Shown piece after piece: positions 4,230 through 61,022 of a DNA stretch of 64,000 nucleotides (the first letter of the stretch is position 1; the number at the start of each line of letters is the position of its first letter). The notes beneath the pieces were generated by a model. The model was not told the origin of the DNA. It worked only from the letters and a program-made list of their open reading frames with translations, and ran no database searches. This DNA is from an uncultured Bacteroidales bacterium (GTDB lineage Bacteria; Bacteroidota; Bacteroidia; Bacteroidales; F082), in contig CAMJRR010000012.1 in assembly GCA_946408345.1 (NCBI GenBank), positions 1,993 to 65,992 of the forward strand, read 5' to 3'. The translations under genes were made by a program, and so were the position numbers.

Positions 4230-4305
4230 GGGTTGGTAATGGAGCAGACAGGAACTTTCTATACCATATTAACCTAGTCTGGCGGTTCGATTCCGCTCCA
4301 ACCCA
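4230..4305 (+). ncRNA. tRNA-like element, non-canonical (no assignable anticodon arm)
   Basis: 76 nt. Perfect 7-bp acceptor (GGGTTGG/CCAACCC), U8, A14 and a canonical T arm (GGCGG-TTCGATT-CCGCT). The interior instead forms ATGG/CCAT around a 21-nt loop. Confidence 0.5.
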
Positions 4306-25752: not shown

Positions 25753-25893
25753 CAGTTTAATTTTCGGGGGTCAAAACTAAATTGGCAGTTAAGCCAAAGT
25801 AAAATATCAGTTTAATTTTCAGGGGTTAAAACTAAATTGGCAGTTAAGCCAAAGTAAAATATCAGTTTAATTTTCGGGGGTCAAAATTAAAAT
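25753..25893 (+). repeat. 55-bp tandem repeat, about 2.5 copies
   Basis: CAGTTTAATTTTCGGGGGTCAAAACTAAATTGGCAGTTAAGCCAAAGTAAAATAT starts at 25753, 25808 and 25863 (last copy partial). It is preceded by the hairpin ATTAAGC-N12-GCTTAAT. Confidence 0.85.
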
Positions 25894-25940
25894 CATCGCA
25901 AAAAAAATCGCCCAAATTGTTGCACATTCCAAAAAAGCCG

Positions 25941-25948
25941 TATATTTG
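25941..25948 (+). promoter_or_regulatory. -7 promoter box within the recurring TATATTTGCAGCG motif
   Basis: TATATTTG. The extended motif recurs at 26966 and 41284, with variants at 28937, 42739 and 42927. Confidence 0.55.
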
Positions 25949-25952
25949 CAGC

Positions 25953-26137
25953 GTTCAAACTATTCGCGGCGTAAGATGACAGCCGCACCAACAGCGGCAT
26001 TTTTTATGCCTATACATATCGATGATTAACAGAGCCAACGGCTCCGAGGGACGCGGTAGCAGTAATGCCCGTAAGGTTTGCGAATAGACCTGAACACCCC
26101 TATCGGAGCCTATTTTGTTCAATGTTCAAACTATTCG
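25953..26137 (+). promoter_or_regulatory. structured 5' leader (box / anti-box / box) of ORF 26115-26546
   Basis: The 14-mer GTTCAAACTATTCG occurs at 25953-25966 and 26124-26137. An imperfect complement lies at 26081-26095. A helix pairs 26040-26050 with 26097-26110. A terminator-like hairpin plus T-run lies at 25982-26005. Confidence 0.55.
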
Positions 26138-32609: not shown

Positions 32610-32767
32610 GTAATCACTGTATAGATGTGACCTGCCCAGTGTGCGGTGAGGAGTATGATGCACGGCTGCATTATTACCGGTGCCCCGTGTGCGGCTTCGA
32701 CCGCGAAAAACTGTCACTCCAACGTCAGCGGCAATTGCCACCTTTGCAGCGCAAAGCAAAGCAATAG
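32606..32767 (+). CDS. small zinc-ribbon protein (53 aa)
   Basis: Hand-translated MSNHCIDVTCPVCGEEYDARLHYYRCPVCGF... Confidence 0.45.
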   Translation: MSNHCIDVTCPVCGEEYDARLHYYRCPVCGFDREKLSLQRQRQLPPLQRKAKQ

Positions 32768-32841
32768 ACGTGACGACCGCCGTCCATCCGCGAGGCCAGA
32801 TGGCGGTTTTTTCTGAAAACAAACACAAACACATCACAATT

Positions 32842-33909
32842 ATGAAAAGAATCTTCCTCTTCATCGCGTTGGTCGTCCTGGCCGTGGGGGCCAGCGCACA
32901 AGGGCGCTACAATTACGATAGTGGCCACAAATACGGCTTTTTCTCGAACTGGACATTGGGCATTGCCGGGCAATATGCCAACCAACACGGCGTGTCGGAC
33001 ATCGGCATCAGCGCATTGGCAACGAAGCGCGTGGGCGACTTCTGGCGCTTGCGCTATGAGGCCTCCATCAACGGGCTGAAGAAGGCTAAAGGTTTCGACC
33101 GCTACGGTACCGCGATGGCTGGCGTTTCGCTCGACTTCGTTGAATGGGCTTATCTCTTCGGCGACGCTGGAGCGATATACAACCCCTCGATGAAGGCGAA
33201 GCTCGGACTTGCCGCCGATGCCGGTCTCGGGCTGAATGTCAACTTCGGGAAACACTCAATACTTTACATCGAAGGTGGCAGCGACCTGGTGCAACGCAAC
33301 GCCAGTTGGGACAATACCTTTTTCGCCCGCCTCGGCTACCAGGCCAGACTGGGCATCACCGAGCGCGACCGCGTGGATATCGATATCGACAGGCATATGC
33401 GCGAAGGCTATGGCGAGCTGAAGCAGGAAAACCAGCTGATAAAGACCGAACTGAAGAGGAAACAGGTGGAGATAGACACGCTGATGTCGATCCAAAACAG
33501 GTCGTTGGCCCTCATGGCAAGACTGGAGAAGCGACTTGACGACTGCAACGAACAAGTGGCCAAGGCCGCACAGTCCAACCCGGTGCCCGCCAACTCGTTT
33601 TCGCAGATCTTCTTCAACAAGGGCAGCGCAGAGATATCGCCCATTGAGGCGGCGAAGGTGAGGCAGTTGGCCGACTATATCAACAGCACCGATGGCGACT
33701 TCCTCATTGAGGGCTATGCCAGCCCTGAAGGCTCGCCCTCCGTCAACGAGCAACTGAGCGCCGACCGTGCCCGAGCGGTGTATTGGCTGCTGATTGAGTT
33801 GGGCGTTGACATCGACCGCCTCGTGCCGATGACGGGCGGCATCTCGACGCAATACGGCGACGACTCGCCGCTGAACCGGATGGTGGTGGTGAGTGCCAGC
33901 CCTTACTGA
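32842..33909 (+). CDS. OmpA-family outer-membrane protein (signal peptide, beta-rich N-domain, coiled coil, OmpA C-domain)
   Basis: 355 aa from ATG 32842. MKRIFLFIALVVLAVGASAQ signal peptide. C-terminal IEGYASPEGSPSVNEQLSADRARAV. Confidence 0.8.
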   Translation: MKRIFLFIALVVLAVGASAQGRYNYDSGHKYGFFSNWTLGIAGQYANQHGVSDIGISALATKRVGDFWRLRYEASINGLKKAKGFDRYGTAMAGVSLDFVEWAYLFGDAGAIYNPSMKAKLGLAADAGLGLNVNFGKHSILYIEGGSDLVQRNASWDNTFFARLGYQARLGITERDRVDIDIDRHMREGYGELKQENQLIKTELKRKQVEIDTLMSIQNRSLALMARLEKRLDDCNEQVAKAAQSNPVPANSFSQIFFNKGSAEISPIEAAKVRQLADYINSTDGDFLIEGYASPEGSPSVNEQLSADRARAVYWLLIELGVDIDRLVPMTGGISTQYGDDSPLNRMVVVSASPY

Positions 33910-34148: not shown

Positions 34149-34221
34149 TGCGGGGTAGAGCAGCGGCCAGCTCACTGGGCTCATATCCCAGAGGTCGGCG
34201 GTTCGAATCCGTCCCCCGCTA
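34149..34221 (+). tRNA. tRNA-Met(CAT), initiator type
   Basis: The cloverleaf fits standard numbering. T1:T72 is mismatched, A11:T24 pairs, and three G:C pairs (29-31/39-41) close the anticodon stem. The loop is CTCATAT and the T loop TTCGAAT. No CCA is encoded. Confidence 0.85.
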
Positions 34222-34296
34222 CAAGGAGAGCGTTTAGATGTCCCGGCAAACTCCTAACCAAACAGGCAACATCAAGTGAGTGAGAATCTCACAAAC

Positions 34297-34401
34297 GGGG
34301 ATGTCGCCCAGAGGCAGGGCATTCCGTGTAAAGGGTAGCAGAACAGAAGCACGGAGTAATAGTTCGCTTGAGAGACGCGGGTTCGAATCCCGCTTTCCCC
34401 A
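34297..34401 (+). ncRNA. aberrant 105-nt tRNA-like element
   Basis: Good D arm (GCCC-AGAGGCA-GGGC) and T arm (GCGGG-TTCGAAT-CCCGC). The acceptor GGGGATG/TTTCCCC is imperfect. The anticodon position holds an 8-bp stem with a 21-nt loop, followed by a 20-nt linker. Confidence 0.45.
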
Positions 34402-34838
34402 CCGTTCCTTCAGCCGTAGGGATATGGCTGTCGCAAAGAGACAACACATTATTATTCACTTAATCAAAGCCGGTGCAAAAGGACACCGTCGGGTGCGAGC
34501 CCCGCGATTTTCTTTTTGTTGTGACAAATGAGATGCAGAGTATAGATGGCGTTGTCTTCTGATTTTTCCACACTCGCAGCTACGGGCAACGGGCGACGGC
34601 AACGCCGCCCTGGTCCCACAAAAGCTACGAAGACAAACGGAAGGGTTAGACCTCCAAAGGGGAGGTGAGATAAGTACCCCATGGTGTGCAGGTTTGGATT
34701 AAAGTGCTCGGGACTGCACACCACGCTTACCGGAAGCTTGGCCCGCCGTTCGACTCGGCACCCTTCCACGTTCTGGACTCGCCAAAACTCGACTACTACT
34801 AACAAGAAAGCTCACCGCCCGCCAAGGCCAGCTTATCA

Positions 34839-41179: not shown

Positions 41180-41283
41180 CTTTGTTACAACCTTGAAAAC
41201 GACAAAGTTCCCACAAACCGGGAGCTTTTCCTTTTTTTTCCGCAATTTTCCCACAAAAATTGTTGCACAATTGAAATAAGCTG

Positions 41284-41291
41284 TATATTTG
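41284..41291 (+). promoter_or_regulatory. -7 promoter box (TATATTTGCAGCG)
   Basis: TATATTTG. Confidence 0.55.
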
Positions 41292-41295
41292 CAGC

Positions 41296-41500
41296 GTCTA
41301 CAACATGATAGTTAGTCTATCTCGCAGGGGCGGCGGAAACAGCCCAAGACATACCGAGGGCTTTTTTTATTGCCCTCTCCGAGTAAGACCTCTGCGGTCG
41401 CCTTTCGTAACATAAAGTCCCCTCGTGGTAGACAGTCATGTTGTAGACAGCGAAACGGCGACCGCTTTCTTGTTGCCCAAACCTAAATGTCTACAACATG
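41296..41500 (+). promoter_or_regulatory. structured ~200-nt 5' leader (box / anti-box / box) occluding start codon 41498
   Basis: GTCTACAACATG occurs at 41296-41307 and 41489-41500, and the second copy contains the ATG. Its exact complement CATGTTGTAGAC lies at 41437-41448. Further helices pair 41394-41407 with 41451-41465 and 41352-41360 with 41419-41430. Confidence 0.6.
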
Positions 41501-43215: not shown

Positions 43216-43257
43216 AAAATAAGGTTTGGCGCATAGTTTTGCGTCAAACCTTATTTT
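43216..43257 (+). terminator. 13-bp perfect stem-loop abutting the tape-measure start codon
   Basis: AAAATAAGGTTTG (43216-43228) pairs with CAAACCTTATTTT (43245-43257). The ATG is at 43259. Confidence 0.6.
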
Positions 43258-43258
43258 T

Positions 43259-46200
43259 ATGGCAGACAATAGAGATACTTTTGTTTCCGAGATTTACGTC
43301 AACAACGAGCAGGCCAACGATGCCATTGCCGAGATGACAAAGCAGCTTACCAAGCTGACCGACAAATACGACGACCTTGCGGCAAAGAACGAGATACTGG
43401 CCGCGAAAACAAACAAGGCCAAGGCCGCGATGGAAGAAACGGCCAAGGCCTTGGAGGGGATGAAGGAAGGCACCGAGGAATACGCCAAGACTTCGAAGAA
43501 ACTCAAAGAACAGGAAAAGGCATACAACGACCTTGCCAAGAAACTCGAAATCAGCAAGCACAAGACCGACCAGGCGAAGCGTGAGATGGATTCGATGCAA
43601 GAGAGTATCAAGAGGGCTGACGATGGTGTCAAGAAGTTCGGCAAAGCCATGGAAAACCTTACTGGGAAAAGCATGGAGAACCTTGTGAGGATGCAGCGCC
43701 AGTTGAGATCGGAACTTGACAAGACGAAACCCAATACCAAGGAATGGGACGAATTGGCCAAGAAATACCAGCAGGTGACTGCCGAAATGAAGCGGCTTGA
43801 AGCAGTCCAAAGCGGTGTTGTGATAAAACAGCAGGGATGGCTGCAAAGGCTTAACGGCGTTTCGAGTGCCTTCCTTTTCCTCGGTCAGGCTGCGAGGACT
43901 GCTATTGCACTTGCGCGCCGCTTCGCCGATGCCTACAAGACCATCTCCAACTTCGAGCAGGCCAACGCCAACCTTTCCACCATCCTCGGCGTAAACCGCG
44001 ACCAGATGAAGGCTTTGGAGGATGCCGCCCTTGAACTGGGCAGCACCACGCGCTACACGGCCTCGGAGGTGACCAACCTGCAAACCGAGTTGGCCAAGTT
44101 GGGTTTCACACAGAAGGAAATCCTCGACATGGGCCCGTCGGTGCTGAACTTCGCCACGGCGGTGGGAACCGACTTGGCGAGTGCGGCGGCAATGGCGGGT
44201 GTGGCCTTGCGCTCGTTTGAGATGCAAAGCGACCAGACCGAAGACGTGCTGGGCACGATGGCGGTGGCCTGCAACAAATCGGCGCTTTCCTTTGAATATT
44301 TGCAAAACGCCTTCAGCACCATTGCGCCAGTGGCGAAGAGCTACGGCCTCGGCTTGAAGGACACGGTGGCCCTGTTGGGCACCTTGGCCAATGCCGGATT
44401 CGACGCCAGCAGCGCGGCCACGGCAACGAGAAACATCCTTTTGAAGATGGTGAACACCAACGGCGAATTGGCGAAGAGTCTCGGCGGATCGGTGAAGACA
44501 TTCGACGACATCATGGACGGGATGATCAAGTTGCGCGATTCGGGACTTGACCTTGCCGGAGCTTTCGAGCTTACCGACCAAAGGAGCGTTTCGGCCTTCA
44601 GCACCTTCCTTCGCGGCGCGGAGAGCGCGAAGGAGCTGCGGGCATCCATCGATGACGTGAACGGCGCGTTGGCGGCCACCGCCGAAGTGCGTGCCGACAC
44701 GGTTGAAGGTGCCATTGCAGGACTGCAAAGCGCATGGGAGGGATTCATCTTGAGTTTCCGCAACTCATCGGGCACGGTGAAGGAGATGATTAAGACCCTG
44801 ACGGAGATTGTGCGCAAGTTGCCGCAATACTCCGACGGCATTGTGAAGGTGACGCAGGCGGTTGTGATTGTGGTGGCCGCAATCAAAACGTGGACTTTGT
44901 TGGAAAAGGCAAAGAACGCAGTGGTGGCGGCGGGAAGCAAACTGGCTGCCGCAAGGGTGGTGATAGTGGAATCGGTGCGGCTGGCCTACTTCAAGCTGAC
45001 AGGCAACACCATAAAAGCCGCCGCAGCGCAAACGGCATTGAACACGGCTATGGCGGCCAACCCCTTCGGAGCGGTAGTGGCCATTGTGGGAGTGCTGTCG
45101 GTGGCTATCAGCCGCTTGGTGGGCAGGCAGCGTGAGGCCACGGAACAGACAGATGCCTTGGCTGAAGCCGAGAAACGCGCCAACGAGGAATACGGCGAAC
45201 AGGCGGGCAAGGTTCGCGCCTTGACTTCCATTGTCGAAAACAACAATATCGCTCTCGGCGAGCGCAAGAAAGCCCTTGAGGAACTGAAAAGCATCGTTCC
45301 TGGTTACCACGGCGACCTGACCGAAGAAGGCAGACTTATAAATTCCAACAAAGAAGCCATCGACGAGTACTGCAAGAGCCTCCGTGAGCAAATCCGGCTA
45401 GAAGCCCGCAAGGAAAAACTCGTTGAATTGGAGAAACAAATTGCCGAGCTTGAAGACCAAAAAGCAGATGCGCAGGAAAGGCAGCATCAGGCCTTGGTGG
45501 AATCGGGCGGCGACCATACTGAAATACAGTGGAAGAAAGCGCCTCTGCTTGGAAAAAACGCAAAGAAGGGAAAATTCACTCCTTATGGACAAGCCAAAAA
45601 AGACGAAGCTGACATTGACAAACTGCTTGCGCCTTTGTATGAGCAGGAGAAAAAGATTAGCGAAAAAATCGGCAAGATATTCACCGACCCGATTGACAAA
45701 GTCATGGCTGAATACGAGGCCATGTTTGACCAAATCCGAAAGGAAAGCGTCGACAACCCCAAGGCCGCCAACGAGGAAATCAACCGCCTGCGGGAGGAAC
45801 GAGACCTGAAAATCGCGGAACTAAAGAAAACGGCTGATGAAACCAAGAAAGTGGTTTCGGAAGAAAACGCCATCCTCACCCAAGCCCAGTTCGATTTCCT
45901 TGAAGGCCGTTACGACAAACTCACCAAGAAAGAGAAAGCGATGGTGGATGCCGGATATGCCACCCTTTCGGATGAGGACTCCAAAGCCCTCAAAGCGCGA
46001 TATGACAAGCTGATGAAGGCCGACAACAAGGCCGCCGACCAACGCTACCAAGCCGACATGAAAAGCATCGAGCAACACCAACGCGCCGAACAGAACCTTA
46101 TCAACGCCCAGTTCTTTAACCGCGATATTACAGCAGAGCAACACGAGGAGAAACTGGTGGAAATCAAGGTGAAGTATCTGGAGGAGAAGAAGGCCCTTGC

Positions 46201-47728
46201 CGAGAGATACGGCCAAGACACCAGCACCATCGAGGAACAGCTGCTGGCCGCAGAGGTGGCACGCCACAAGTTCTACTACGACAAAGAGATGAAGCTGTGC
46301 GAGAAACGCTGGATGGAGGAAGAGATTGGGCTGAGGCAGCAACTGTCGGCCAACGCCATTACACAGGAGGAGTTCGACAAGCGTATGCTCGAAAACAAGG
46401 AGAAACACCTGCGTGAGCAGCAAGAATTGGCCTTGGGCTACAACCAGGACGGCAGCGGCATACAGCTGAAGGATATCGAAGCTCGGCAGAAGGAGGAGGA
46501 ACGCGCCCTGAAGCAGAGACTTATGTCACAGAAGGTGACGCAAGAGGAATACGACCGCCAGATGCTCGAAACCAAGCTGAAATACCTGCAACAGCGTCTC
46601 CAGCTTGCCCGTCAGGGCGGACAGGACGAAACCGCCATCCTTCAGGAGATCCTGGCAGCCCAGGTGGAAGCCGAGGAACTGGCCATGAAGCAGATGGCGA
46701 AGCTGAAGGAAGACGCGAAGAAGGTCATCGCCGGACTTGACCCTTCCTCAGCACGCAAGTCGGAACTGGAAGAGCAACTGAAGCAGCTGCAAGTGCTGCA
46801 CGATGCCAAGCTGCTTTCAGAGGAACAATTTAGGAAAGCCGTAAAGAGACTAAACAAACAGTATGACTCAGATGAACTGAAGGAGAGATTGGCCAACGTA
46901 CGGAATTACGCCGAGCTGTCCAACAGCGTTATGTCAGAAGCCTCCAACTTCGTCACCGCCCTGAAAGAAGCCGAATCGGCGCAACTGGAAGCCGAATATC
47001 AGAAGCAACTCACGGCAGCGGGCGACAATGCCGAAAAGCGCGAGCAAATCGAGGCAGAATACGAGCAGAAGAAGCTCGACCTGCAAAAGAAGTATGCCGA
47101 CACGGAGATGGTGATCAACATCGCCAAGACCGTGGCCAACGGTGCGGCTGCCGCCGTGAAGGCTTATTTGGACGGTGGCGTGTTCGCAGGCCCTGTTTTG
47201 GCTGCTTTGGTCGCCGCCACCACTGCCGCCGAGGTGGCCACCATCGTCGCGCAACGCAACGCTATCAAGAATGCGAGCGTCAGCAGCGGTGGAGGCTCTT
47301 CGTCGGCTCCCACGACAGGCGAACGCAAGATGACCGGCTACGGAGATGGCGGGTTTACGGACCGTGCGGCCAACGACCACAAGGTTGTGGGCGTGGTCCA
47401 TGCCAACGAGTATGTCGCTCCAGCGTGGATGGTGAGGGAAAACCCTACCGTGTTCGCCAACTTGGAGCAATACCGCAAGAACGGAAGCCACGGTCGCAGC
47501 GGCTCAGTGAGCCAGGGCTTCGCCGATGGTGGCTTCACCCTCGGCAACGGCGGTGGCCTTGGCGGTGCCATAGGCGCACAGCCCGACATCGAAGCCGCCG
47601 TGGAGGCTGCCATCCGCCGCGTGATGGCCGACGGTGCCATCCGCGCCTATCTGGTCCGCAAAGACCTCACTGAACTCGATAACCAAACCCAACGCTTCAA
47701 AAAACAAACTTCAAGATGGAACTCGTAA
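43259..47728 (+). CDS. tail tape measure protein
   Basis: 1489 aa from ATG 43259. Long coiled-coil stretches, central hydrophobic segments and a Gly-rich C-terminus. Confidence 0.85.
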   Translation: MADNRDTFVSEIYVNNEQANDAIAEMTKQLTKLTDKYDDLAAKNEILAAKTNKAKAAMEETAKALEGMKEGTEEYAKTSKKLKEQEKAYNDLAKKLEISKHKTDQAKREMDSMQESIKRADDGVKKFGKAMENLTGKSMENLVRMQRQLRSELDKTKPNTKEWDELAKKYQQVTAEMKRLEAVQSGVVIKQQGWLQRLNGVSSAFLFLGQAARTAIALARRFADAYKTISNFEQANANLSTILGVNRDQMKALEDAALELGSTTRYTASEVTNLQTELAKLGFTQKEILDMGPSVLNFATAVGTDLASAAAMAGVALRSFEMQSDQTEDVLGTMAVACNKSALSFEYLQNAFSTIAPVAKSYGLGLKDTVALLGTLANAGFDASSAATATRNILLKMVNTNGELAKSLGGSVKTFDDIMDGMIKLRDSGLDLAGAFELTDQRSVSAFSTFLRGAESAKELRASIDDVNGALAATAEVRADTVEGAIAGLQSAWEGFILSFRNSSGTVKEMIKTLTEIVRKLPQYSDGIVKVTQAVVIVVAAIKTWTLLEKAKNAVVAAGSKLAAARVVIVESVRLAYFKLTGNTIKAAAAQTALNTAMAANPFGAVVAIVGVLSVAISRLVGRQREATEQTDALAEAEKRANEEYGEQAGKVRALTSIVENNNIALGERKKALEELKSIVPGYHGDLTEEGRLINSNKEAIDEYCKSLREQIRLEARKEKLVELEKQIAELEDQKADAQERQHQALVESGGDHTEIQWKKAPLLGKNAKKGKFTPYGQAKKDEADIDKLLAPLYEQEKKISEKIGKIFTDPIDKVMAEYEAMFDQIRKESVDNPKAANEEINRLREERDLKIAELKKTADETKKVVSEENAILTQAQFDFLEGRYDKLTKKEKAMVDAGYATLSDEDSKALKARYDKLMKADNKAADQRYQADMKSIEQHQRAEQNLINAQFFNRDITAEQHEEKLVEIKVKYLEEKKALAERYGQDTSTIEEQLLAAEVARHKFYYDKEMKLCEKRWMEEEIGLRQQLSANAITQEEFDKRMLENKEKHLREQQELALGYNQDGSGIQLKDIEARQKEEERALKQRLMSQKVTQEEYDRQMLETKLKYLQQRLQLARQGGQDETAILQEILAAQVEAEELAMKQMAKLKEDAKKVIAGLDPSSARKSELEEQLKQLQVLHDAKLLSEEQFRKAVKRLNKQYDSDELKERLANVRNYAELSNSVMSEASNFVTALKEAESAQLEAEYQKQLTAAGDNAEKREQIEAEYEQKKLDLQKKYADTEMVINIAKTVANGAAAAVKAYLDGGVFAGPVLAALVAATTAAEVATIVAQRNAIKNASVSSGGGSSSAPTTGERKMTGYGDGGFTDRAANDHKVVGVVHANEYVAPAWMVRENPTVFANLEQYRKNGSHGRSGSVSQGFADGGFTLGNGGGLGGAIGAQPDIEAAVEAAIRRVMADGAIRAYLVRKDLTELDNQTQRFKKQTSRWNS

Positions 47729-59536: not shown

Positions 59537-60709
59537 TCAACCTTCACGGCTGAATGCCGGTGCCTTCGTGCTGATGGTATCAACCAATCGAGGATCCGCG
59601 TGGTTGGCATAGCGCGTGGTTATGCTCAGGTCGTGGTGGTCGGCGTGCTGCATGACGCTCAGCGCGTCAATGCCGCCTTTAAGCATCTCGTTGATACCAG
59701 TGTCGCGCAATGAATACAGCTGCATCTCGTCAGGCAACCCCAACGCCTCACGCATGTCCTGCCAATCCTTGCGGAATCGGCTGTAGGCCATCTGTTTCTT
59801 CCCTGGCATGTAGCCGTCGGAAAAGAGGTAGTCGCTCTTGTTGGCGTGTCGCGTCATCTTCTCCAGCCTCGTGACGAGTTCCGGAGTGAGTGACGGACTT
59901 CGCCGATAGTGTGTCTTGCTGTCATCCTCGCTTACCTCTATATATCGGTCGGCCAGCATCAGGTCTGACACATGCAGCCGCCAACACTCCTTCGGGCGTA
60001 TCAACGCCGAGAATACCAGTTCGCAAAGGACAATGTAATTCTCGTTGCGCTCCGACCAATACTTGTAGATTTCCTTCCTGACCTCGTGAGGCACCATGAT
60101 ACGCTTCTTGCCTTCCTCGCGCTTAGTCTTGATGGAGGCAAAGGGGTTTTCTTTGCAATAGAATTTCTCTATGGCGTAGGTGAAGAATGCCCGTGCTTGC
60201 TTCAGACGGTTGTTGTAGCTTCGACCATGCAAGCCTTTTTCCTGCACGATGAAGTCCATGAAGTTGGTGGCCATCACGCGGTTGAAGCCCGAAATGGCAA
60301 TCTTGCCATAGTTCTTTTCCACCCATTCCTTAAACACCTTGACGAAAGAGCGGTAATTGATCAAGGTGTCGGGGCGCACGTCGCCCGCTTTGTCGACCAG
60401 GTATTTGTCGAGCACGGCATTGATGGGTGTCAGCTCACGCGAATTGCCGGCACATCCCTCGAAGGGATTCCAGCCCGTGGCCAACTGTGTGTTTAGCCTG
60501 GTGATGACATCGGCGCAATAGGCCTTGAAGTCGGAGACTCTCGAATACTTCTTACGGATGCGGTTCATCTTGATCACCCGTCTTTCCATCGCATTGAAAG
60601 CCGGATTGAACACGCGGTATTCGATGGTCCAGCCATGCGCCGTGTATTTCAGCGATGCCGGAAGGTAGCTGATGAGAGGTTGAGAGTTTTGGGTTTTGAC
60701 GAGACACAT
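59537..60709 (-). CDS. int: tyrosine-type site-specific integrase
   Basis: 390 aa. ALIRPKE (Arg), YSLRDTG and HADHHDLSITTRY (His...Tyr). It is adjacent to attR and the tRNA. Confidence 0.85.
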   Translation of the reverse strand: MCLVKTQNSQPLISYLPASLKYTAHGWTIEYRVFNPAFNAMERRVIKMNRIRKKYSRVSDFKAYCADVITRLNTQLATGWNPFEGCAGNSRELTPINAVLDKYLVDKAGDVRPDTLINYRSFVKVFKEWVEKNYGKIAISGFNRVMATNFMDFIVQEKGLHGRSYNNRLKQARAFFTYAIEKFYCKENPFASIKTKREEGKKRIMVPHEVRKEIYKYWSERNENYIVLCELVFSALIRPKECWRLHVSDLMLADRYIEVSEDDSKTHYRRSPSLTPELVTRLEKMTRHANKSDYLFSDGYMPGKKQMAYSRFRKDWQDMREALGLPDEMQLYSLRDTGINEMLKGGIDALSVMQHADHHDLSITTRYANHADPRLVDTISTKAPAFSREG

Positions 60710-60834: not shown

Positions 60835-60863
60835 GTGGGACGTACTGGACTCGAACCAGTGAC
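60835..60863. repeat. attR core (within the tRNA-Val 3' end)
   Basis: Identical to 2185-2213. Confidence 0.9.
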
Positions 60864-60910: not shown

Positions 60911-60947
60911 TCCGTTGATACAAAAGACGCTTTGCAGCGTCTTTAAG

Positions 60948-61022
60948 TGGGGCGAACAAGGATCGAACTTGTGACCTCATGCCTGTCAAGCATGCGCTCT
61001 AAACCAACTGAGCTACCGTCCC
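60948..61022 (-). tRNA. tRNA-Val (anticodon GAC)
   Basis: 75 nt. Anticodon arm CATGC-TTGACAG-GCATG and T loop TTCGATC. There is one A4:C69 acceptor mismatch. Confidence 0.8.

Follow-up and report, generated by a model that had tools for sequence, protein, structure and literature searches.

The 105-nt element at positions 34297-34401 of the window, by which we mean the whole 64,000-nt stretch of DNA analysed here, is well supported by sequence comparison as a phage-encoded tRNA mimic that would not decode. Five natural variants show a predicted fold that is conserved and selected, in which the tRNA body has been kept and a usable anticodon loop removed. The best explanation, to which we assign a probability of about 0.5, is that the RNA is processed as a tRNA and works in trans, as decoy or adaptor towards a factor that binds tRNA.

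An intact tRNA body

The element and its parts are as follows.

34297-34401, forward strand: tRNA-like RNA of 105 nt, variant B1 of a family we call 'B', ending at discriminator A34401
34297-34303, forward strand: acceptor 5' strand GGGGATG, pairing with TTTCCCC at 34394-34400
34306-34320, forward strand: D arm GCCC-AGAGGCA-GGGC, with U8, A14 and G18G19 in place
34321-34357, forward strand: long helix of TTCCGTG (34322-34328) with CACGGAG (34350-34356), plus A34321-T34357
34337-34344, forward strand: pseudoknot 5' strand AGC-(A bulge)-GAAC, in the loop, pairing with 34362-34368
34362-34368, forward strand: pseudoknot 3' strand GTTC-GCT, inserted between tRNA positions 43 and 44
34369-34376, forward strand: junction TGAGAGAC, invariant in all B variants
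34377-34393, forward strand: T arm GCGGG-TTCGAAT-CCCGC, read from the sequence

The 5' half reads GGGGATG / TC / GCCC-AGAGGCA-GGGC / A / TTCCGTG, followed by the 21-nt loop TAAAGGGTAGCAGAACAGAAG, and the 3' half reads CACGGAG / T / AATAGTTCGCTTGAGAGAC / GCGGG-TTCGAAT-CCCGC / TTTCCCC / A. The Rfam tRNA model RF00005 matches exactly 34297-34401 with 40.3 bits against a gathering score of 29, aligning full length over model positions 1-71 (E = 4.6e-5 for the 64-kb window). Together with the covarying variants described below, this match bears out the claim of an earlier sequence-only reading that a tRNA-like RNA lies at these positions. Copies of B2 and of the B3 type scored 31-39 bits against the same model, and no match to B4 was reported at threshold. 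Default ARAGORN did not call the element; its calls in the window were a tRNA-Met at 34149-34222 and two tRNA-Val genes.

All the conserved bases of tRNA tertiary structure (U8, A14, G18G19 and T54-C56) are present in the element, and the canonical D arm, T arm and acceptor that the sequence-only reading had proposed are confirmed by the sequence, with stems that either covary or are invariant between variants. That reading had called the acceptor mostly paired, which holds and can be made specific: B1 has four G-C pairs, an A-U pair, a U6.U67 mismatch and a G7.U66 wobble. The acceptor is also weakened in other copies, by A3.C70 in L005 and by U5.U68 in L003 and L024. Such mismatches might impair the RNase P or CCA steps in the copies that carry them. 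In B1-B3 the discriminator is followed by an encoded CCG rather than CCA, and the host tRNA-Val gene likewise lacks an encoded CCA.

A rebuilt anticodon arm tied to the core by a pseudoknot

A tRNA would be expected to have a 5-bp anticodon stem closing a 7-nt loop with U33 and an anticodon, and the element has neither. The long helix of B1 closes a 21-nt loop (34329-34349), and in all five variants a helix of 7 bp (plus one) with a loop of 20-22 nt stands in place of the anticodon stem, in agreement with the earlier proposal that a long helix and a large loop replace the anticodon arm. The proposed 8-bp helix with a 20-nt linker holds in part, since counting 8 bp leaves a linker of 19 nt.

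What the sequence-only reading overlooked is a predicted 7-bp pseudoknot between loop and linker, so that these two segments are not independent. Its plan is constant and its register fixed: 3 bp, a bulge of 0-1 nt, and 4 bp. In the bulged variants B1, B3 and B4, loop positions 9-16 pair with linker positions 6-12; B2 and B5 form the same seven pairs without a bulge, one flanking G.U having been added by the script. The conserved TAATA (34357-34361) lies directly 5' of the pseudoknot 3' strand, and the whole insertion between positions 43 and 44 amounts to 12-13 nt. The last five bases of the junction, GAGAC, constitute an ordinary variable loop (positions 44-48) and also form the variable loop of normal phage tRNAs (L036, L044). 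The gene can therefore be described, from its sequence, as a tRNA altered in two ways, by enlargement of the anticodon arm and by an insertion after position 43 that pairs with it.

Because the 3' strand of the pseudoknot opens only 4-5 nt past the long helix, we infer that the second helix lies near the core, at the site where the variable arm of a class II tRNA would emerge and that the loop strands would have to run back alongside the long helix. It is well supported that the pseudoknot ties the loop to the core and that the 7-nt anticodon loop is eliminated. As judged from this fold, decoding by the element is almost certainly excluded, because the stem is 7-8 bp long and the loop is sequestered.

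The unpaired segments are kept as UAAWGGRU, ARWAG (AAAGAG in B4), UAAWA and UGAGAGAC, and the loop always opens with a U-turn-like UAAW. In other words, loops and junctions remain constant while the stems change.

Five variants support all helices by compensatory change

Relatives were gathered via a neighbouring OmpA-like gene and via DNA patterns, of which the productive one combined the invariant TGAGAGAC with the T loop; D-arm patterns returned nothing beyond a few contigs that had already been found. An exact-match search of IMG/VR with the B1 loop gave no match, and blastn against GenBank phages found no B-family copy. Five sequence variants emerged from at least three phage lineages, with three of the five (B1-B3) coming from one lineage.

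B1, in the window and in L005, L006, L011 and L014: window's prophage lineage, after tRNA-Met; long helix TTCCGTG / CACGGAG; pseudoknot AGC-A-GAAC : GTTC-GCT
B2, in L003, L012, L017-L019, L021, L024 and L025: window's prophage lineage, after tRNA-Met; long helix TGGTGCG / CGCACCG; pseudoknot TGCTGAC : GTCAGCA
B3, in L022: window's prophage lineage, after tRNA-Met; long helix TGGTGCG / CGCACCG; pseudoknot GAC-A-CTAC : GTAG-GTC
B4, in L026: a separate IMG/VR contig, after tRNA-Arg; long helix TTGCACA / TGTGCAG; pseudoknot GGC-T-CCAC : GTGG-GCC
B5, in L045: between tRNA-Asn and a phage tmRNA; long helix TGTGATG / CATCACG; pseudoknot AGCTGAC : GTCAGCT

Across the five variants, and with the gap in B2 moved from its MAFFT position to the bulge column and B5 added, 35/35 pseudoknot cells are Watson-Crick pairs, with double compensatory changes at 4/7 positions. 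By the same count the long helix is paired in 35/35 cells and shows compensation at 6/7 positions, so that the homologue alignment suggested by the sequence-only reading does reveal covariation in this helix; its first pair is U.G in every variant. Compensation is also evident in the acceptor (GGGGGAG/TTCCCCC in B3, TGCCCCG/CGGGGCA in B4 and TCTCTGA/TCAGAGA in B5). The D stem is identical in B1-B4 and becomes GCTC/GAGC in B5, and the T stem becomes GCTGG/CCAGC in B5 and carries one G.U pair in B4; both stems thus show compensation in B5. The discriminator is A, G or U depending on the variant, and no identity rule can consequently be read from it.

In a MAFFT alignment of B1-B4 (eight sequences, without B5), 95.1% of cells were paired and 15 pairs had changed on both sides, a result matched by 0/500 shuffles, and sliding the 3' partners by 1-3 columns lowered pairing to 40-51%. 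Per-sequence shuffle tests of the pseudoknot alone gave p = 0.03-0.17. As these values are modest, we take the support for the pseudoknot from its fixed register and from compensation across variants. A covariance model (R1) built from the B family scores the window element at 125.8 bits, the element itself being among the sequences used to build it.

Two open reading frames overlap the element (34234-34449 on the reverse strand and 34280-34531 on the forward strand). Both were rejected as the source of the conservation, since 1-2-nt indels and compensatory paired substitutions among the variants rule out coding constraint. On neither strand did the window contain a near-match to the loop, as an antisense target would be, outside the element itself. 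No Pistol, hatchet or hammerhead ribozyme and no pseudoknot riboswitch in Rfam matched the element at E <= 10.

The element occupies an exchangeable slot in a prophage tRNA cassette locus

The following features place the element in its surroundings.

2185-2213 and 60835-60863: 29-nt exact direct repeat, the 3' end of tRNA-Val(CAC)
59537-60709, reverse strand: tyrosine integrase
43226-47728: tape-measure protein
34149-34222, forward strand: initiator-type tRNA-Met(CAT), called by ARAGORN, 60.7 bits with the Rfam tRNA model
34276-34292, forward strand: leader hairpin GTGAG-TGAGAAT-CTCAC just 5' of the element, whose reverse strand was flagged as a hairpin
34402-34517, forward strand: conserved 3' trailer beginning with CCGTTCCTTCA, its first hairpin at 34411-34430

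The att-type repeat, the integrase and the phage genes, which also include those for an S49 prohead protease, a C5 methylase, a resolvase and a primase-like protein, indicate that the element resides within a prophage of approximately 58.6 kb integrated at tRNA-Val, about 32 kb away from the att sites. The host flank codes for a Dpp5-like S9 peptidase, and rumen 'uncultured Bacteroidia' MAGs contain the genome copies nearest to this type of phage. Within the prophage, the element lies in a non-coding stretch between the OmpA-like gene (32680-33909) and the lysis region, which encodes DUF5675 in the window and Amidase_2, glucosaminidase, GH108 or NlpC/P60 in relatives. Among the genes close to the locus in relatives are some of Tad2-like, HicA and Gp49/HTH type. 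Searches with Pfam, PHROGs and NCBIfam revealed no tRNA-related enzyme among selected prophage ORFs and the neighbours of the E-group (described below) and B4 copies.

The tRNA-Met is the first gene of the cassette locus and bears the initiator hallmarks of a U1.U72 mismatch, A11-U24, and GGG/CCC at the bottom of the anticodon stem. The initiator type assigned by the sequence-only reading therefore stands, and its 75-nt spacing is to be corrected, as the real gap to the element is 74 nt. The leader hairpin takes the form GTGAG-AGC-CTCAC in relatives and is replaced by a different hairpin in L005. Behind its first hairpin, the trailer continues with an A/U-rich spacer, a hairpin with an AAAAGGA loop, a terminator-like hairpin (34487-34506) and a T-run. 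In relatives it follows the last tRNA or tRNA-like gene of each unit and its first hairpin covaries; B4 and B5 are without it. Neither the flanks of the element nor the trailer nor a downstream tRNA-like RNA gave a match to any known RNA family. Upstream of the tRNA cluster we found a conserved CATACTTTGG, which we take to resemble the Bacteroidetes -7 promoter element TAnnTTTG; a sigma-70 scan is unsuitable for this locus.

In relatives the slot is filled by varying mixtures of genuine and odd tRNA-like genes, the latter comprising the following types.

78-nt type with a G3.U70 acceptor: L001 (5772), L002 (5719), L023 (4249)
tRNA with a 6-nt anticodon loop: L005, L017
type with a 7-bp anticodon stem: L001 (6243)
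degenerate type: L028

Some close relatives hold the element and others have a different odd tRNA-like cassette in its place. The element is an accessory gene.

A proposed role in trans

According to the explanation we favour, the element and the upstream tRNA would be transcribed together from a tRNA cassette locus with a terminator of its own, and the element would be excised by RNase P and RNase Z before CCA is added. We infer the last step because the gene has CCG and the host tRNA-Val is likewise made without an encoded CCA. The parts that would be retained for the L-shape and for maturation are the acceptor, U8/A14, the D arm with G18G19, the GAGAC core and the TTCGAAT T arm. The product would accumulate as a stable, tRNA-shaped, non-decoding molecule whose effect in trans would be to occupy some protein with specificity for the tRNA body. 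The likeliest target would be a nuclease or toxin of host defence that attacks tRNAs, or else an enzyme that modifies or charges them, and the conserved single-stranded UAAWGGRU, ARWAG, UAAWA and UGAGAGAC together with the invariant U.G pair may provide a specific surface. A role as decoy against a host defence effector is suggested by analogy and by genomic context, because the element is an exchangeable accessory cassette and has anti-defence and toxin-antitoxin neighbours in relatives.

It is rather unlikely, in our view, that the element is instead an aminoacylatable carrier, in which the pseudoknot mimics a class II arm for a synthetase such as SerRS that does not read the anticodon; the aminoacyl group would then be used outside decoding, or the synthetase would be titrated. 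The pseudoknot helix does start 4-5 nt past the long helix, at the site of a class II arm, the core and elbow are intact, and the alanine-type G3.U70 acceptors of other cassettes (L001, L002, L023) hint at charging. However, acceptor and discriminator vary without a conserved identity set, several copies have mismatches in the acceptor, and no aminoacyl-transferase-like gene was present among the scanned ORFs.

The conserved, structured trailer behind every terminal tRNA or tRNA-like gene could also be taken to mean that the element is a cis signal for RNase P/Z processing or stability of neighbouring RNAs, releasing or protecting the upstream tRNA, or the trailer as a small RNA, and having no role once freed. 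Processing signals of a tRNA-like kind operate elsewhere, as in MALAT1 mascRNA and the tRNA-miRNA units of MHV68. We nevertheless hold this to be unlikely: the trailer also follows an ordinary tRNA-Met (L001, L005), so that a pseudoknotted version would not be needed, B4 and B5 keep the whole fold without the trailer, and neither the conservation of the loops nor the covariation in the pseudoknot would be accounted for.

A minimal tmRNA-like molecule, made up of a tRNA-like domain, a helix and a pseudoknot with no coding part, that binds SmpB or stalled ribosomes, or that modulates the phage's own tmRNA, has still lower odds. The Rfam tmRNA model aligns to the element from end to end, with P2 falling on the long helix, and the element of L045 lies 7 nt 5' of a phage tmRNA gene. 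The alignment scores 25.3 bits, with an E-value (1.6e-8) that is small because only 401 bases were searched, but the RF00023 threshold is far higher, at 47. Moreover, the 3:70 pair is G-C, C-G or U-A and in no variant G3.U70, a true D stem is present, ARAGORN in tmRNA mode calls nothing, and 4/5 variants are not adjacent to a tmRNA.

We regard as very unlikely that the element is a decoding tRNA with a short intron or an oversized anticodon loop, which after removal or rearrangement would read a UUU or AUU-type codon by way of the conserved U-AAW that opens the loop. Real tRNA genes surround it, the U-turn-like UAAW always begins the loop, and once introns are allowed ARAGORN calls the variants Phe(AAA) or Ile(AAU). 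These calls are inconsistent with one another, however, the supposed intron shifting in position and length between variants (35/16, 38/15, 36/16, 38/17 and 39/15), and allowing an intron did not turn the element into the standard tRNA that the sequence-only reading had named as the outcome that would count against it. The supposed intron also covaries with the supposed exon, namely the linker, and even with it removed, 19-20 nt of variable region would stay unpaired and the stem would keep its 7 bp. Bacteria are not known to use A34 anticodons for Phe or Ile, nor is a splicing route known for bacterial tRNA introns of 15-17 nt. Group I introns exceed 200 nt, and the insert is, as had been noted earlier, too short to be one, the supposed introns measuring 15-17 nt.

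Finally, a tRNA pseudogene in decay, or a remnant of an integration site, that acquired an insertion by chance, which the lack of a default ARAGORN call, the acceptor mismatches and the tRNA fragments that prophages often hold at att sites (here 2185-2213) might suggest, is highly improbable given compensation in four helices, five variants in different phage lineages, invariant unpaired motifs and att sites 32 kb off. An att-site remnant was rejected on the same positional grounds, the att repeats being at 2185-2213 and 60835-60863.

Comparison with known tRNAs and tRNA mimics

With canonical tRNA (RF00005) the element shares a 7-bp acceptor, a 4-bp D stem, a 5-bp T stem and a location in tRNA clusters. 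It differs in the 7-8-bp helix, the 20-22-nt loop and the 12-13-nt insertion that pairs with that loop, and in being called by ARAGORN only with the intron option. Like tmRNA it has an acceptor and a T arm of tRNA type, a long helix at the site of the anticodon stem with a pseudoknot after it, and no anticodon; some phages, moreover, encode tmRNA, and B5 adjoins one. Unlike tmRNA, the element is only 105 nt long, with no room for a tag ORF and no mRNA-like frame, and it has a real D stem, no G3.U70 and a score of 25.3 bits versus 47.

Several other RNAs, among them YrlA, the 3' tRNA-like structures of plant viruses and mascRNA, are non-decoding and copy the elbow and acceptor for tRNA enzymes or partners, and YrlA-type RNAs occur in phages too. 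The ends of YrlA lie on its 'anticodon' side and it has a Ro-binding stem, unlike the element, and the plant-virus structures have their pseudoknot in the acceptor stem, again unlike the element. We know of no such tRNA mimic with a pseudoknot between anticodon loop and variable region.

Class II tRNAs (Ser, Leu, Tyr, Sec) and the allo-tRNAs of Mukai et al. 2017 (PMC5389517) resemble the element in having an extra helix that leaves the body between anticodon stem and T arm and a length of roughly 85-105 nt. Class II tRNAs have a self-contained variable-arm hairpin and a normal anticodon loop, whereas the extra helix of the element uses the anticodon loop, and its acceptor/T branch is the ordinary 7/5 rather than 8/4 or 9/3. 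A class II tRNA was accordingly rejected: the linker's own hairpin is at most 3 bp, and the linker pairs with the loop of the anticodon arm instead. The sequence-only reading had likewise been unable to fit a type-II fold for Sec, Leu, Ser or Tyr, and the linker indeed has no self-contained hairpin arm.

In Rfam 15 only the tRNA and tmRNA models match the element at E <= 10. Full-text literature searches found no description of it, and where a survey of structured RNAs from viruses touches on the subject, it names no more than generic 'tRNA-like' candidates (PMC10690425). The B family thus appears to be a new RNA family, absent from Rfam and from the papers searched, and its anticodon-loop/variable-region pseudoknot a new architectural feature within tRNA mimics.

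tRNA finders miss such genes, or mislabel them as Phe or Ile tRNAs when introns are allowed, and both outcomes distort phage tRNA inventories and arguments about codon usage. A compact, strongly covarying fold recurs here among phages that are unrelated to one another, from Bacteroidia-type communities of gut and rumen, at loci that exchange odd tRNA-like cassettes. Should the element serve as a decoy against immunity directed at tRNAs, or hijack a tRNA enzyme, it would represent an RNA-only strategy in the conflict between phage and host, and a naturally stabilised, ready-made RNA scaffold. The hypothesis is directly testable because the natural variants supply compensatory mutants.

A looser group of related elements

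The pattern of TGAGAGAC plus T loop also retrieved further long tRNA-like elements from IMG/VR, which we call the 'E group'; one copy lies in an unannotated faecal phage contig (MT835773.1). They have ordinary acceptor, D and T arms and a covarying stem of 5-7 bp (AGGTC/GACCT, AGACCAA/TTGGTCT, AGACTAA/TTGGTCT, AGGCCG/CGGCCT and AGGGCTT/AAGCCCT). Their loops of 21-53 nt are followed by TTAAAA(A), a segment of 3-5 nt and TGAGAGAC, and the loop finds the pairing partner of its 3' end in this segment (CCA:TGG, CCAG:CTGG, CCAC:GTGG and CCTGC:GCAGG). From their sequences, the E elements seem to follow the plan of the B family more loosely, with weaker support than for B. They are without tRNA neighbours, and the scanned ORFs flanking them showed no known function in Pfam, PHROGs or NCBIfam.

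A wider reading, which we offer as a tentative possibility and on balance doubt, is that gut and rumen phages carry a superfamily of pseudoknot-locked, anticodon-less tRNA mimics, swapped as cassettes and serving as RNA counter-defence. It would comprise the B family, the E group and possibly other long tRNA-like genes of phage arrays, and would decoy or inhibit host effectors directed at the tRNA body, such as anticodon nucleases and toxins that modify the acceptor end, or else tRNA enzymes. If so, it would constitute a new functional class of viral non-coding RNA.

A second tRNA-like element in the window

The sequence-only reading had linked the element to another one in the same window (element A, 4230-4305) through a shared loop motif, AGCAGAACAGAA, and a shared loop length of 21 nt. 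Neither link is supported. The motif is mostly the 5' strand of the pseudoknot and covaries freely, being replaced by TGCTGAC, GACACTAC, GGCTCCAC or AGCTGAC in other variants, and is therefore not a conserved signature; B-family loops range from 20 to 22 nt. The string common to element A and B1 (AGCAGA..CAG..AA) corresponds to this variable strand, and the R1 model found no match to element A even at E <= 10.

Of the tRNA parts, element A shows the acceptor, with 7 bp, and the T arm, and it has no D arm. It can be drawn as an ATGG/CCAT hairpin whose 21-nt loop pairs with the linker (CAGAC-AGG : CCT-A-GTCTG), and its architecture is possibly convergent with, or distantly related to, that of the B family. 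An exact pattern for element A was absent from IMG/VR, and no homologues were found among relatives of its downstream gene. At the corresponding spot, one relative carries a different tRNA-like cassette and another a small ORF.

A shared 3' trailer and other occupants of the cassette slot

The 105-nt pseudoknotted tRNA-like RNA of the prophage, variant B1 of the B family (34297-34401, +), is followed directly by a conserved trailer, which also occurs in eight related loci (L001-L003, L015, L022-L024 and L028):
34402-34517, +, conserved 3' trailer

In each unit the trailer stands after the last tRNA or tRNA-like gene, irrespective of the type of that gene. Its parts are, in order, CCGTTCCTTCA, a GGGA-loop hairpin that covaries, an A/U-rich spacer, an AAAAGGA-loop hairpin and, last, a terminator-like hairpin trailed by a T-run. 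The trailer might represent a small RNA of its own, or a module for recombination and termination in cassette exchange.

Three of these relatives carry a 78-nt tRNA-like gene in the slot of the B1 element, and further aberrant tRNAs were found in related loci:
L001 5772-5849, L002 5719-5797 and L023 4249-4326, 78-nt tRNA-like genes
L005 6714-6786, L017 4250-4322 and L011, aberrant tRNA with a 6-nt anticodon loop (TCCTAA) and the T loop TGCGGTT
L001 6243-6320, aberrant tRNA with a 7-bp anticodon stem (GCGGCTT/AAGCCGT) and the loop TCGCGCG

The 78-nt genes combine an alanine-type acceptor containing G3.U70 (GGGCTGY/RCGGTCC) with a 5-bp stem that covaries; their 'anticodon' loop is irregular, reading TGATGAG or TGAAGAG, and lacks U33. 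ARAGORN labels them tRNA-His(ATG). The tRNA with the 6-nt anticodon loop received the ARAGORN label '???(ct)'.

Approximately 240 nt 3' of the B1 element, beyond the next promoter-like region, lies a second tRNA-like RNA that is distinct from B1:
34639-34768, +, 130-nt tRNA-like RNA

Besides an 8-bp acceptor (GGAAGGGT/ACCCTTCC), it has three hairpins in its interior and an arm that resembles a T arm (GCCG-TTCGACT-CGGC). The RNA is kept in five relatives (L005, L006, L011, L017 and L022), with covariation in the T stem and in one inner hairpin, and the L022 copy has CCA at its end. Rfam held no matching family for this RNA and ARAGORN made no call.

tRNA-like genes in other phages and at a second hot spot

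The plan of the B family is shared by the E group, a looser set of long solitary tRNA-like genes of 104-139 nt hosted by other gut phage contigs:
L047 4948-5051, -
L038 1705-1812, -
L042 7333-7439, -
L035 1692-1830, -
L050 401-508

Loop-to-linker pairing possibly extends to a 116-nt tRNA-like gene within a phage tRNA array (L034 4005-4120), where GTACAG:CTGTAT is a candidate pairing. On a small IMG/VR contig (L045 400-963), variant B5 stands back to back with tRNA-Asn on one side and, on the other, a complete phage tmRNA that has the tag GKTAKVVSMTHRTVALRAAA and G3.U70.

A second cassette hot spot, close to early HTH genes, is the site of element A (4230-4305, +), which combines an acceptor with a T arm, lacks a D arm, and can be drawn with a predicted pseudoknot of its own between a hairpin loop and the downstream linker. 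The same spot is occupied by a different tRNA-like RNA of ~110 nt in one relative (L049 1840-1965) and by a 51-aa ORF in another (L048).

Other features of the prophage

The prophage boundaries are marked by an exact repeat corresponding to the 3' end of tRNA-Val(CAC):
2185-2213 and 60835-60863, 29-nt att repeat
59537-60709, -, tyrosine integrase, adjoining the intact tRNA-Val(CAC)
60947-61022, second tRNA-Val(GAC), next after tRNA-Val(CAC)

Within the prophage we additionally identified:
26040-26112, +, c4-2 antisense-RNA match (Rfam, 46.1 bits; threshold 41)
25914-25966 and 41257-41309, duplicated ~41-53-nt sequence (AAATTGTTGCACA...AGCYGTATATTTGCAGCGT), copies 15 kb apart
32680-33909, +, OmpA-like gene (mechanical ORF, 409 aa, GTG start)

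The c4-2 match is shared with relative L005 and is preceded on its 5' side by three 55-nt tandem repeats (25753-25917). Since the duplicated sequence includes a -7 promoter motif of the Bacteroidetes type (TATATTTG), it is probably a phage promoter or operator that is reused. The OmpA-like ORF is probably ~54 codons too long as called; its homologues all measure 350-355 aa, with a conserved MKRI at the start. In several relatives a Tad2-like gene (anti-Thoeris family) lies immediately 5' of the OmpA-like gene; the window appears to have no such gene.
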